A stretch of 64,000 nt of DNA from Candidatus Freyarchaeum deiterrae (GTDB lineage: Archaea > Asgardarchaeota > Jordiarchaeia > Jordiarchaeales > Jordiarchaeaceae): NCBI GenBank assembly GCA_037305845.1, contig CP147778.1, positions 2,432,001 to 2,496,000 on the forward strand. Direction: 5' to 3'. Position 1 is the stretch's first letter, and each line of letters begins with the position of its first letter. Below the pieces are notes generated by a model. That model did no database searches. It was not told the DNA's origin and was given only the letters and a program-made list of their open reading frames with translations. This document shows positions 1,267-5,748 of this stretch, in pieces. The translations under genes and the position numbers were made by a program.

Positions 1267-2214
1267 TTAAACCTGTGCTCCGCAACTTGGGCAGAAGCGA
1301 CTTCCTGGTGGAACCTGAGTTTTGCACTTTGGACAGGTTTTTCCGCCTCCCAGTTGGGCGCCACAATTGTTACAGAAACGTGCATTAGCGGCTATTTGCG
1401 CTCCACACTTCGGACACGTTGTCAAAGCGACTTGAGGACCTTGCGGTTGTTGAAGCAACTGTGGCATTATTACCATTCCGACGCCTGCTCCAGCGGAGCC
1501 TCCTCCTTTTCCCAGAGATTCCGCAGCGCTTTTGGTGGTTTCTAGGGTGGCTAGGCGGTCACCTTGAACTTGGCCTGTTTGCATCCAGAATAGTCTATCT
1601 CTGTATTCTGGAGTTGTGTCCATTCCCTCGAATTTGAGATCCACGAGGTCTAAGCCGATTCTTCCGAACTGCTCTTTGATTGTGGTTTTCACTTTCATAC
1701 TGCTCTCATTGAGTTGTGTGAAAGCGTCTCTCAGGGTAAAGCCCGACACATTTTCGATGAGTTTTTCTAAGATGAAGCCTCTGATAAATTCGCTGACAGC
1801 ATCGGTTGTGAACGCCTTAGCGTTTCCTACAACCTCAACCACAAATAGTTTGGGCTCCTCTACTTTGAAATAATACGCACCGTGGAACATTAGCGGTGCA
1901 AGTTCTTGGGTTTGGCCTCTGCCACCAAATTTTCCCTGAAACTGCGAAGTGGAAATGAATATAACATCAGATGTAAACACGTTTTTGTTAAATCCTGTCA
2001 ATTTTTCATATGCTTTGGTTAAGAGGGGTAGTTTCATAGTGGCCAGCACATGTCTTCCTGGGCCAAAAACATCGTAAGCTTTTCCGTCTCTGAAGAACAC
2101 TGCCTGCTGGTTTTCAGCAACAATTAGTGCTGCTCCCCAAGTTAGGTTGTTGTCTGGAAATCGCCAAACAATATCTTGTTTTCCAGCTCCACGCCATTCT
2201 ATTACTTGTGGCAC
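1267..2214 (-). CDS. SPFH/band-7 domain protein with C-terminal double zinc ribbon
   Basis: SPFH-type N-terminus (DIVWRFP, LIVAENQQAVFFRDGK, FGPGRH). C-terminal CPKC..FCNNC..CPKC..FCPSC. GTG start with GAGGTGA RBS. Confidence 0.85.
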   Translation of the reverse strand: MPQVIEWRGAGKQDIVWRFPDNNLTWGAALIVAENQQAVFFRDGKAYDVFGPGRHVLATMKLPLLTKAYEKLTGFNKNVFTSDVIFISTSQFQGKFGGRGQTQELAPLMFHGAYYFKVEEPKLFVVEVVGNAKAFTTDAVSEFIRGFILEKLIENVSGFTLRDAFTQLNESSMKVKTTIKEQFGRIGLDLVDLKFEGMDTTPEYRDRLFWMQTGQVQGDRLATLETTKSAAESLGKGGGSAGAGVGMVIMPQLLQQPQGPQVALTTCPKCGAQIAANARFCNNCGAQLGGGKTCPKCKTQVPPGSRFCPSCGAQV

Positions 2215-2235: not shown

Positions 2236-2827
2236 TTATTCGAATTTGAGCATATAGCTTCTTCTATCTCCAAACTTTTTGTCAATATCGTCAAGTGTTC
2301 GTCTCAATGAAAAGATCTGCTGGTAAGCATTATCAAATTTACTCGATTCGAGTTCATCTTTAAGAGACTTTATTTCGCCTTGAAAAGTTTGGATATCATC
2401 TAAAATCGATGAATCGAATTCATACATTCTGTCAAGTTCTGGTTCACGAATTTTTACTGAGTCAAAAAAACCACCATAACCATAGTCAGCGTGGTTTATT
2501 CTCTCAGCGACCCTGTCTACGAGCGCCATCAATCTATCCATCTGCTCCCAAGTATTATTGACTTTATAATCCACAAGCATCTCCTGTACAAGATTAAGGT
2601 CACTTTTAGAATCACTGAACTGCTTGAACATGTAGTTCCGTAAAGCTTTATCCGCCTCTCTACGTATTTCCTTTGCCTTGTATCCATGTTGGCCGAGCAG
2701 AAGTAACTCTTACTGCTCAGTAACCAGGGATTACAAAGGCAACTTTCTCCAATAGGCTTCTGTTGGACTGTTCTCTTACTTCGCCTTTAATCTTCTCTGC
2801 TGTTGTTTTCTCTTTCTTACTAAACAT
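2236..2827 (-). CDS. Conserved hypothetical coiled-coil protein, spliced: join(complement 2720-2827, 2236-2688), 186 aa
   Basis: Exon 1 from ATG 2827 reads MFSKKEK...LLEKVAFVIPGY. Exon 2 reads HGYKAKEIRREADKALRNYMFKQ..., in frame with ORF 2236-2631. Joining gives IPGYHGYKAKEIRREADK. Co-oriented with and just upstream of the SPFH gene. Confidence 0.85.
2689..2719 (-). other. 31-nt BHB-type intron in a protein-coding gene
   Basis: Minus strand: atccct-GGTT-AC^T-gagcag-taagagttactt-ctgctc-GGCC-AA^C-atggatac. It shows a 4-bp helix, two 3-nt bulges, an inner stem and outer exon-exon pairing. It begins with an in-frame TGA. Confidence 0.85.
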
Positions 2828-2943
2828 TTTAACAACCCCATAATCGTTGCCGTACACATAAACTTCATACATCATGCTCTTAAAAAGATTTCATTACGAG
2901 CAAGAATAATAGAAATGCTCTTAAAAGATTTACTATGGATTAG

Positions 2944-4345
2944 CAAGAAAGCCCTAGTCCCTTTAGGGTGGGGGATGAATTGCGGGAGTTTAAATACCGA
3001 AAAAGGAGGAAAAAGGGGGAGTGAAAAGGGTATGCGGATAAACTGGGGTTTGAAGCCTACCCGCATCGGACTCGTTATGAATGAGGGAGAGTTGCGCATT
3101 TGAGAAGGACTAACACCTTCCGGCTGGTTCCAGCAAAGGAGCAGAAGCAGAGACTTTTCAGTTTAGCCGACAACTGCTCCAAAATGTACAACGAGATAAA
3201 CCATAAACGCAGACAATCATTCTTCTCAGGCAGATTCGACTGGAACACCGACGAACAATACCACAAATACAAGGGGTTAGTCGGCTCCGCCACCGCCCAG
3301 CAAATCACACAAAAGAACAACGAAGCCTGGAAATCATACTGGGCACTCCTAAAGAAGTGGAAAAAGGGAAAGGTGGAGAAGAAACCCAAACCTCCGAGAT
3401 ACTGGAAGGATCGCGAGACTGGAAAAAGACCCCTTAGAATCCTGGTAAGGTGCGACAGCTACCATCTGGAAGAAAAAGCCCTCAAACTCCCTTTCGGACT
3501 AAAAACGCAGTGGAGGGGCAGAAACAGGTGGAAAGGCGGTAAACAGGGCAGACTCGAAATAACCTATGACGAACTCTCGGAGAAATGGTACGCCTACATG
3601 CCAGTAGAGATCAAACCTCCTCTACACCAGCAACAGCAGCAGCTGAAAGGAAAAGAAAAGGAGGCGTACGTGGATCTGGGAGTGAAAGTCCCCATAATGG
3701 CGAGTATAGATTGGGAAGTCTTCGGCTACCGGGCGAATCCCATGCTCTCGGACTGGTGGTACTGGACACACAGAATAGCGGAACACCAGTCAATCCTGAA
3801 AGATGTAAACAATCGGTCAACCTCAAAGCTGTTAAAATCCTACCATAGGATGAGGCAGAGAAGATTCAGGAACAGTGTCAACGTGATGGTGAGGGACTTC
3901 GTTGAAAAGTGCTGGAACAGGGGAGTCTCGGAGATAGTCTGCGGAGATTTGAGAGACATAAGAAGCAGCGCCAACTTCTCAAGGAGAAGCAACTCCATGA
4001 TTCACAACTTCTGGTCGGTAGGATACATAGTAAGGAGGATAGAAGAAGTAGCAGAGGAGTACGGGATAAAAATAACTAGAGTTGATGAGAAAGGAACATC
4101 ATCAGAATGTCCGAGGTGCGGCTCAAAAAGAATCGTTAGAAGCAAAAGAATGTTCAGGTGCCGGGACTGCGGACTGGAAGCACACCGAGACGCCGTAGGC
4201 TGCGTAAACATAGGGCTTGCTCACCAACAAAAAGAAAAAGAAAAGGATGCGGAAGCCGTTAACAGGGCGGTGACACGCCCCACACTTCTAACAATAACTG
4301 CAGAAGTGTATAACTCCCTACCTTTCAAGGAGGGGAGTATGTCAG
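2944..4345 (+). mobile_element. IS200/IS605-family element carrying tnpB only (IS1341-like); ends approximate
   Basis: Left subterminal hairpin CAAGAAAGCCCTAGTCCCTTTAGGGTGGGG (2944-2973). Right hairpin AACTCCCTACCTTTCAAGGAGGGGAGT followed by ATGTCAG (to 4345). No tnpA in the element. Confidence 0.7.
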
Positions 4346-4356
4346 TAATCAGGTAA
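3100..4356 (+). CDS. tnpB: RNA-guided endonuclease TnpB
   Basis: N-terminal 'RTNTFRLVP...YNEIN' helix region, RuvC-I 'AYVDLG', zinc finger 'TSSECPRC...FRCRDCG', RuvC-III 'AHRDAVGCVNI'. Confidence 0.92.
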   Translation: MRRTNTFRLVPAKEQKQRLFSLADNCSKMYNEINHKRRQSFFSGRFDWNTDEQYHKYKGLVGSATAQQITQKNNEAWKSYWALLKKWKKGKVEKKPKPPRYWKDRETGKRPLRILVRCDSYHLEEKALKLPFGLKTQWRGRNRWKGGKQGRLEITYDELSEKWYAYMPVEIKPPLHQQQQQLKGKEKEAYVDLGVKVPIMASIDWEVFGYRANPMLSDWWYWTHRIAEHQSILKDVNNRSTSKLLKSYHRMRQRRFRNSVNVMVRDFVEKCWNRGVSEIVCGDLRDIRSSANFSRRSNSMIHNFWSVGYIVRRIEEVAEEYGIKITRVDEKGTSSECPRCGSKRIVRSKRMFRCRDCGLEAHRDAVGCVNIGLAHQQKEKEKDAEAVNRAVTRPTLLTITAEVYNSLPFKEGSMSVIR

Positions 4357-4611: not shown

Positions 4612-5748
4612 ATGATGGAGCAAATGGAACGAAAGGGGAAGAAATTAAAACCTCCCCCTAAGGGCAGATTAATAGTTTCCAATATGTCTGGTGTTGAACT
4701 ACTAATTGCGTTTGAAGTTTTATCCAAAATGCGAGACCAAGGTAAGATCACTGATACGTTAATATTTGTTTCCCATAGTAAAGAATCATTAAGTTTGGGA
4801 AAATACGAAGACCTAGATGATATTCATTATAAGGCGGTGAAAAGAGACGGGGTGCTGGTAGGGCGAAGGGAGAGTGGGGCTGGCACTTACTATGCACCTA
4901 AAGGCCAAATCGCGGCTGTCCTAGTGACAACCACGGATGTGTTTCCAAACTTGGACGAAGCTGAGAGGATTTGGGCTGAAGAAATCATTCTTGAACTCTT
5001 CATAAGGGTGGGTGTTCTGGATGCTTATTACGATCATCCGGGTGATATTAAAAAGGAAGAAAAGAAGTTGGGTGGGAGCACCTCAATGATTTCGGGAAGA
5101 GGAATTACGGTGGGAGCGTTCATTAACCGGCTTACACCCAACGTCAAGTTTTTCACAGAATATCTCGTATATCCTGAGGAAAAGCTCAAGGACGAAATAC
5201 TGCGCGACGTAACCATGTACGCGGGCAGTATGGAAGAAGATGCACCCCAAACGCCAAGCGAGGATGAATTAAAGAAACTCCTACTAGGTATTGTGAACCA
5301 AAAATTGGGCATGGATTTTGAACCCGGGGATTTCACTAAAGAAGAAAAAGAAATGATAGCTAAAGACTTCAAAAAACTTACCTCGGAAGACTCGGTAACC
5401 AGCATCTCTAAGAGCAGATGGTATGCCAAGCTACCACATGACTGGAACGCGGCGACTTTCAGTTACAAAGCAGAAAGAATAGTAACTGCAAGCGTAGCAA
5501 TCGACAAAAGTAAAAAAATCAAAGATGTTCTTATAACAGGTGACTTTTTACTCTCACCCCCAAACGATTTAGAAAAAGTAACAAACGCACTGAAAGAAAT
5601 ATCAGCAGAAAACAAAAAAGCCATAACCAACTCAATAGTTGAAGCTTTTCAAAATAACAGCACAGACTATTCAGGCTTTACTATCGAGGAATTCGTTAAA
5701 ACGGTAACAGAAGCGGCAAACCTCGCCTTAGAACAATCATCAAAATAA
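4612..5748 (+). CDS. Lipoate-protein ligase A family protein (divergent)
   Basis: 'GRRESGAGTYY', 'GDI..EEKKLGG' and C-terminal 'DVLITGDFLLSP' domain, paralleling the ligase at 24684. Confidence 0.8.
   Translation: MMEQMERKGKKLKPPPKGRLIVSNMSGVELLIAFEVLSKMRDQGKITDTLIFVSHSKESLSLGKYEDLDDIHYKAVKRDGVLVGRRESGAGTYYAPKGQIAAVLVTTTDVFPNLDEAERIWAEEIILELFIRVGVLDAYYDHPGDIKKEEKKLGGSTSMISGRGITVGAFINRLTPNVKFFTEYLVYPEEKLKDEILRDVTMYAGSMEEDAPQTPSEDELKKLLLGIVNQKLGMDFEPGDFTKEEKEMIAKDFKKLTSEDSVTSISKSRWYAKLPHDWNAATFSYKAERIVTASVAIDKSKKIKDVLITGDFLLSPPNDLEKVTNALKEISAENKKAITNSIVEAFQNNSTDYSGFTIEEFVKTVTEAANLALEQSSK

Follow-up and report, generated by a model that had tools for sequence, protein, structure and literature searches.

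How can an archaeon make one protein from a gene whose two coding parts are separated by a short insert that opens with a stop codon? This question is raised by a locus of the Asgard archaeon Candidatus Freyarchaeum deiterrae, located in a 64,000-nucleotide (nt) stretch of its genome (assembly GCA_037305845.1, contig CP147778.1, positions 2,432,001 to 2,496,000), hereafter called the window, whose numbering is used throughout. At positions 2719–2689 on the minus strand, 31 nt (TGAGCAGTAAGAGTTACTTCTGCTCGGCCAA / UGAGCAGUAAGAGUUACUUCUGCUCGGCCAA) interrupt a gene for a helical protein. In our judgement, this insert is very probably an archaeal splicing-endonuclease intron of the bulge–helix–bulge (BHB, or 'tRNA-type') kind within a protein-coding pre-mRNA. 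From the comparative sequence evidence, we infer actual cleavage and ligation and also constitutive splicing, and the locus thus appears to be a well-supported further example of a very sparsely documented intron kind. The gene is laid out as follows.

2720–2827, minus strand: exon 1, 36 codons (MFSKKEK...VAFVIPGY), with the start codon ATG at 2827
2689–2719, minus strand: candidate BHB intron of 31 nt, UGAGCAG-UAAGAGUUACUU-CUGCUC-GGCCAA, present as a single copy in the genome
2236–2688, minus strand: exon 2, 150 codons plus a TAA stop (2238–2236), HGYKAKEIRRE...YMLKFE

Exon 1 ends with GCC TTT GTA ATC CCT GGT TAC at position 2720, and exon 2 begins with CAT GGA TAC AAG at 2688 (opening sequence, HGYKAKEIRREADK). 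The predicted spliced junction is ...CCTGGTTAC|CATGGATAC..., or ...IPGY-HGYKAKE... at the protein level. A preliminary description of this DNA, made from the letters alone, had proposed that the intron opens with the codon UGA and that the unspliced product is a peptide of 36 amino acids (aa), and both statements were confirmed for the exon-1 frame with the start at ATG 2827; the spliced product would have 186 aa. The exon-2 frame also meets a stop inside the insert, and because 31 is not divisible by three, the two exons cannot be connected by read-through or by one frameshift. The open reading frame (ORF) remains open upstream of ATG 2827 as far as ATG 2875, where relatives have stops, and the start at ATG 2827 is common to relatives (MF(G/S)KK start). 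The first in-frame ATG of exon 2 is codon 20.

The pathway that we propose begins with folding of the transcript, in which GGUU at the end of exon 1 would pair with GGCC at the 3' end of the intron, forming a 4-bp helix flanked by two 3-nt bulges, with a hairpin inside the intron and an outer helix between exon 1 and exon 2. A heteromeric splicing endonuclease (EndA) would then cut each bulge after its second nucleotide (AC^U and AA^C), and RtcB would ligate the exons and probably circularize the intron. The resulting mRNA would encode a helical-bundle protein of 186 aa with the continuous ...IPGY-HGYKAKE... sequence, whereas translation of the unspliced RNA would end at the intron-opening UGA.

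The junction in related genomes

The borders of the insert can be set independently of any RNA structure by comparing homologues. For this purpose, 41 related genomes were searched with exon 2, and the matching loci were inspected. The gene is uninterrupted in four genomes of the same genus (L002, L004, L005, and L006; ...VAYLVPGY|HGYKAKE...), and a fifth congener (L109) also lacks an insert at the junction. Another congener, Candidatus Jordarchaeum madagascariense (L003), carries a 31-nt insert at the identical site, and inserts of 27, 28, 28, and 29 nt occupy this site in all four matching genomes of a second Jordarchaeales family (f2). In Thorarchaeia and other Asgard relatives, the sequence reads IPGW|HGYQ with no interruption, and bacterial homologues have no insert there either. 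Further variants were collected via truncated gene-caller proteins and one pattern scan of metagenome contigs, which added seven genomic intron-bearing copies. The total is 11 distinct intron variants of 27, 28, 29, 30, and 31 nt, all at one site and in two Jordarchaeales families.

The preliminary description had expected that homologues would align without a gap at the junction, and they do so: 21 full-length homologues align gap-free across PG[YF]|[HR]GY, with P36, G37, G40, and Y41 invariant, and the five intron-less congeners have exactly the junction that splicing would create. If both bulges are cut after their second nucleotide, PGY|HGY is restored in all variants, and only removal at the BHB sites keeps the frame in all of them. 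In all 11 sequence variants, the predicted BHB cut sites thus lie exactly where homology places the borders, a coincidence that lies above chance.

A contrary reading would be that the insert disables the gene, leaving the exons as separate or dead ORFs and the hairpin as incidental or a terminator. Gene callers give fragments of 111–131 aa plus an upstream ORF of 40–54 aa in all intron-bearing genomes, and both the predictions here and the NCBI records of relatives, which show only such truncated proteins and the small upstream ORF, would agree with decay. However, the first 19 codons of exon 2 have no in-frame start before them in this genome and are consequently translatable only when joined to exon 1, yet their ratio of nonsynonymous to synonymous differences (pN/pS) is about 0.03–0.25 among intron-bearing species. 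Exon 1 is also constrained (pN/pS about 0.1–0.4), and these values indicate purifying selection on both exons. Furthermore, the insert has been kept at one site in two families, the length changes between 27 and 31 nt always preserve the spliced frame, and the helices covary, as described below. We therefore regard a decaying or split gene as extremely unlikely.

Several loci found in these searches deserve separate mention. L108 (Logan SRR21024894) is a divergent intron-less homologue with 51% identity (VPGY|HGYKNKE) whose branch lies immediately outside the clade of intron-bearing Jordarchaeales. The local gene order is also different there: the SPFH gene that usually follows (see below) is encoded on the other strand and comes after an additional gene of 219 aa. 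In Thorarchaeota L023 (CP070761), a second, paralogue-like ORF was considered as a candidate split gene and rejected, as it proved to be a tandem intron-less copy; the paralogues lie at 1402–1956 and about 2480–3033 of that locus, and the second has a non-ATG start, such that an ATG-only ORF call shortens its product to 116 aa. In the intron-bearing L105 (a Logan SRR24425229 contig), the frame of exon 1 is interrupted at a point more distant from the junction, upstream, and gene prediction divides the SPFH gene into three (55, 111, and 148 aa), which reflects either an assembly error or decay of the whole pair.

The predicted structure and the candidate splicing enzymes

The preliminary description had proposed a 31-nt BHB intron with named helices, bulges, and stems, and every one of these elements was found where it had been placed. 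The structural elements in this genome are listed below.

2722–2725, minus strand: 5' strand of the central 4-bp helix, GGUU in exon 1, pairing with 2691–2694; 100% of cells paired in 10 sequences
2691–2694, minus strand: 3' strand of the central 4-bp helix, GGCC in the intron, the partner of GGUU
2719–2721, minus strand: 5' bulge AC^U, with the predicted 5' splice site between 2720 and 2719, after the second nucleotide
2688–2690, minus strand: 3' bulge AA^C, with the predicted 3' splice site between 2689 and 2688, after the second nucleotide
2695–2718, minus strand: inner helix, GAGCAG (2718–2713) with CUGCUC (2700–2695), closing a 12-nt loop (2712–2701)
2673–2742, minus strand: whole structure including the outer exon–exon helix, AUCCCU (2731–2726) with AUGGAU (2687–2682) plus extensions

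The central helix GGUU/GGCC forms four of four pairs, two of them G-U. The outer helix contains one C.U mismatch and extends into the exons by GUA/UAC and UUGCCUU/AAGGCAA. The arrangement is that of the hBHBh' motif, with 3-nt bulges on opposite strands, a 4-bp helix between them, and helices on either side. The predicted cut positions obey the published rule that cleavage occurs 'between the second and third residues in the bulges' (PMC2738675). The 76-nt region has a fold energy of -30 kcal/mol (z = -4.0 vs shuffles).

When pairing was counted on an alignment of 10 variants, 90.7% of the cells in the BHB structure were paired, compared with 30–44% when the partners were slid by 1–3 columns. 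The central helix was paired in every variant (GGUU or GGCU with GGCC or GGCU), the inner helix in 96% of cells, and the outer helix in 80%, whereas the loops vary freely in length and sequence. Three pairs of the inner helix show double compensatory changes between the families (GAGCAG/CUGCUC vs AGCUC/GGGCU and AGUCU/GGGCU), and G-U intermediates occur within the genus. The exon–exon duplex has a mean energy of -13.5 kcal/mol in intron-bearing sequences vs -6.6 kcal/mol in intron-less ones, a descriptive comparison between related sequences.

Could the ribosome, rather than an endonuclease, pass the insert? Bypassing of the kind seen as hopping in T4 gene 60, frameshifting, or the use of UGA as a selenocysteine codon would each leave the RNA unspliced. 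In the genus g1 variants, the stop and the hairpin stand directly after the Tyr codon, like the gene 60 take-off site, and the organism is credited with selenocysteine machinery (PMC11291895). However, there is no matching landing codon before CAU, and landing at the nearest UAC would remove the invariant HGY. Moreover, no stop immediately follows the Tyr codon in the family-f2 variants, stops inside the insert close the frames of both exons in this genome, and the lengths of 27–31 nt exclude a common read-through. Recoding would also leave unexplained why the helix that joins exon 1 to the intron's 3' end covaries, and we give it hardly any credence.

Several observations count against the BHB intron interpretation. 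In a nearest-neighbour model of the sequence itself, the canonical BHB conformer lies 4.4–7.5 kcal/mol above the minimum free energy (-25.6 and -22.5 vs -30.0 kcal/mol), and the central-helix pairs have an ensemble probability of at most 6%. The C.U mismatch of the outer helix is conserved, and the first inner pair is replaced by a U.U mismatch in two family-f2 variants (L010 and L105), making these relaxed BHBs. The compensatory changes split just two lineages and so represent few independent events. An exact-pattern scan of metagenome contigs of the Joint Genome Institute for the lineage-specific spliced junction gave no match. The BHB motif by itself is also common by chance: under a relaxed definition (four of four central pairs, at least five inner pairs, at least five of six outer pairs, and an intron of 20–110 nt), the 3.58-Mb genome contains 5,761 matches over 91 intron lengths, or ~9e-6 per site and length. 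When the genome-wide matches were filtered for those whose removal restores an ORF, there were 399 candidates vs 384–397 at random positions, with no enrichment, meaning that motif and ORF logic by themselves cannot tell true introns apart. ARAGORN, tried as a positive control for tRNA BHB motifs, returned only 17 tRNA genes, several with implausible introns, and was unusable in this intron-rich genome.

Candidates for the enzymes that BHB splicing would need are encoded in the genome. There are two EndA paralogue loci (PF01974, both above the cut-off), L092 and L093 (G000:C1:1919533-1922778; G000:C1:1731662-1734922), with one ORF of 211 aa and one of 198 aa. The 211-aa ORF retains the catalytic Tyr, His, and Lys, whereas in the 198-aa ORF the catalytic His is missing and the N terminus bears an acidic tail, which suggests an endonuclease of the alpha/beta heteromeric type. 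In the literature, alpha/beta heterotetrameric EndA is linked to relaxed specificity and to the splicing of cbf5 pre-mRNA (PMC5829648; Yoshinari 2006 as cited in PMC12397907). RtcB is also encoded (PF01139, E 1e-171). In PMC11291895, introns are reported for 92–95% of the tRNA genes of a matching complete Freyarchaeia genome.

History of the intron and its relation to known archaeal introns

Trees were built from exon 2 alone and from 1.4 kb covering exon 2 and the neighbouring gene. Intron-bearing rows of both families surround the intron-less rows. With family f2 as the outgroup, the intron-less L109 is sister to the intron-bearing L003 (97/98 support), and the remaining four intron-less genomes form a clade of their own (100/100) nested among intron-bearing congeners, such that the branches starred in the tree force two changes. 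A topology that unites all intron-less rows is rejected by the approximately unbiased test (p = 0.0038), for a group that was named after the first tree had been seen. The simplest history would be one gain, later than the separation from the intron-less L108 lineage and earlier than the split of the two families, and then at least two independent exact losses within the genus. Exact loss at BHB sites is the outcome expected of recombination with spliced RNA or its complementary DNA, and these losses may be read as indirect evidence for spliced RNA.

In terms of origin, the family-f2 loci (L007, L010, L105, L110, and L115) contain a 7/8-nt direct repeat, one copy of which (CUGGCUAU) closes exon 1 while the other (CUGGCUAA) closes the intron. 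This repeat resembles a target-site duplication, and its quasi-palindromic GGCU core pairs with itself to give the central helix of the BHB. In the genome of this window, the repeat has decayed (CUGGUUAC vs UCGGCCAA). It is possible that the intron was born from the insertion of a small hairpin with a 7–8-nt target duplication (CUGGCUA) that formed the central helix. A search of this genome for other intron copies with up to six mismatches found none, and when the G007 intron pattern was searched in G007–G010 and G002, the sole match was G007's own locus.

In the papers that could be searched, BHB splicing of an archaeal coding sequence is reported only for cbf5 (PMC2738675; explicitly in PMC7714728), together with one intron in the 5' untranslated region (UTR) of HVO_1309. 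The cbf5 intron of Crenarchaeota (Desulfurococcales and Sulfolobales; Watanabe 2002, Yoshinari 2006, Yokobori 2009 = PMC2738675) resembles the present one in being a short BHB intron in coding sequence, in having its exon borders set by cuts between the second and third bulge residues, in its host's hetero-oligomeric EndA, and in its patchy gain and loss among close taxa. However, the gene here is another one, encoding an uncharacterised helical protein, and belongs to another phylum (Asgard, Jordarchaeia), and the two would be introns of the same kind rather than orthologous introns. Splicing of cbf5 was shown experimentally, whereas here it is predicted from sequence. A further difference is that both alleles here coexist in one genus, with at least two exact losses predicted. 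In Haloferax volcanii HVO_1309, too, the splicing endonuclease has an mRNA as its substrate rather than a tRNA or rRNA, but the intron is 46 nt long and lies in the untranslated leader, where no frame is interrupted; it was verified by circular-RNA sequencing and in vitro cleavage (PMC7714728).

The BHB introns of archaeal tRNAs, which are unusually dense in Freyarchaeia and Atabeyarchaeia (PMC11291895; preprint bioRxiv 10.64898/2026.10.13.758758), have the same hBHBh' geometry and similar sizes and are presumably processed by the same EndA and RtcB. In contrast to them, the host here is an mRNA, and the exonic portions of the motif have to code for the conserved PGY/HGY as well. The accessible text of the same two sources, the latter a preprint from 2026 that deals with tRNA introns of Asgard archaea, contains no mention of introns in protein genes. 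The locus would extend the mechanism to an unrelated gene of an Asgard archaeon, a member of the lineage closest to eukaryotes, and to a genome with introns in nearly all tRNA genes. With intron-bearing and exactly intron-less alleles in one genus, and a length that drifts between 27 and 31 nt while the frame is kept, it offers a good case for studying how BHB introns behave. Because gene callers truncate the product to 111–131 aa, Asgard annotation pipelines are likely to miss or mis-call such genes.

The encoded protein, its SPFH partner, and the idea of regulated splicing

The spliced product is predicted to be an all-helical protein of 186 aa. A model of an intron-less orthologue (predicted local distance difference test score, pLDDT, 83; predicted template modelling score, pTM, 0.77) places the junction in the invariant PGY-HGY turn, immediately before the longest helix. 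No Pfam family matched the protein above the cut-off, a PADLOC search gave sub-threshold matches only, and a Foldseek search of the PDB with the pLDDT 83 model found no significant match. The sequence matched NCBIfam LIMLP_15305 (NF047596), a family with no known function, weakly, with 48.2 bits vs a cut-off of 210 (E 1.1e-12, 135 of 175 profile positions). The Atlas model of LIMLP_15305 is structurally similar (template modelling score 0.65), and the other Atlas matches are unnamed clusters. The protein is a distant relative of this family at most.

The gene is followed on the same strand by another.

1267–2214, minus strand: SPFH (Band_7_1) protein with two C-terminal zinc ribbons, with a GTG start at 2214 and a GAGGTGA site at 2227–2221

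The SPFH gene begins 21 nt after the upstream stop, and the Shine–Dalgarno-like GAGGTGA lies 6 nt before its GTG. The order of helical-protein gene and then SPFH gene is kept in Jordarchaeales, Holophagae, Bacillota, and Planctomycetota, which points to a two-gene module common to both domains, and the two proteins probably work together. In the bacterial homologues (L073, L074, L079, L088, and L091; Holophagae, Bacillota, and Planctomycetota), the stop overlaps or abuts the start of the zinc-ribbon Band_7_1 SPFH gene. The Thorarchaeia homologues have no SPFH neighbour. As a loose analogy only, Bacillus subtilis YdjI also belongs to Band_7_1 and anchors PspA at the membrane (PMC8581546). The likeness of the present pair to such YdjI/SamI-type systems is the Band_7_1 SPFH neighbour; unlike in those systems, no PspA, YdjG, or YdjH homologues were seen beside the pair here.

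Might the intron then act as a switch? Conditional removal would control the helical protein and, by coupling, the SPFH/zinc-ribbon module. The intron opens with a stop codon, such that unspliced mRNA would yield the 36-aa peptide only; the gene pair is closely spaced and kept across phyla; and the long exon–exon helix could be modulated. The preliminary description went as far as to suggest that splicing could gate expression of the SPFH membrane-scaffold module. This suggestion found no support, because the SPFH gene can start independently from its own Shine–Dalgarno-like site and GTG, 21 nt past the stop, and five congeners have lost the intron with the pair visibly unchanged. In addition, nothing in the sequence points to regulated over constitutive splicing, and we consider regulation very unlikely.

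The eukaryotic system that such a switch would call to mind is that of HAC1/XBP1, in which Ire1 cleaves the mRNA at two stem–loops under stress regulation, and RtcB performs the ligation in metazoa. The link between RtcB and XBP1 is mentioned in PMC8718801. The likeness consists of a short, frame-changing intron that is removed from a cytoplasmic mRNA without a spliceosome by a protein endonuclease and a tRNA ligase. HAC1/XBP1 splicing differs in its endonuclease (Ire1 in place of EndA/TSEN), in its recognition motif, and in its regulation by stress. By this analogy, a conditional choice between the 36-aa peptide and the 186-aa SPFH partner would be an Asgard counterpart, and possibly a forerunner, of regulated ligase-dependent splicing of the HAC1/XBP1 type, a proposal that we rate as very improbable.

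On the other side of the intron-bearing gene, the immediate upstream neighbour is a divergently oriented gene of the TnpB/OrfB_IS605 type (3100–4356, plus strand; 418 aa; PF07282 and PF01385), and an LplA-like gene lies at 4612–5748. In the relative L107, the neighbour on the upstream side is the LplA-like gene. The TnpB element looks like a later insertion between the intron-bearing gene and the LplA-like gene.
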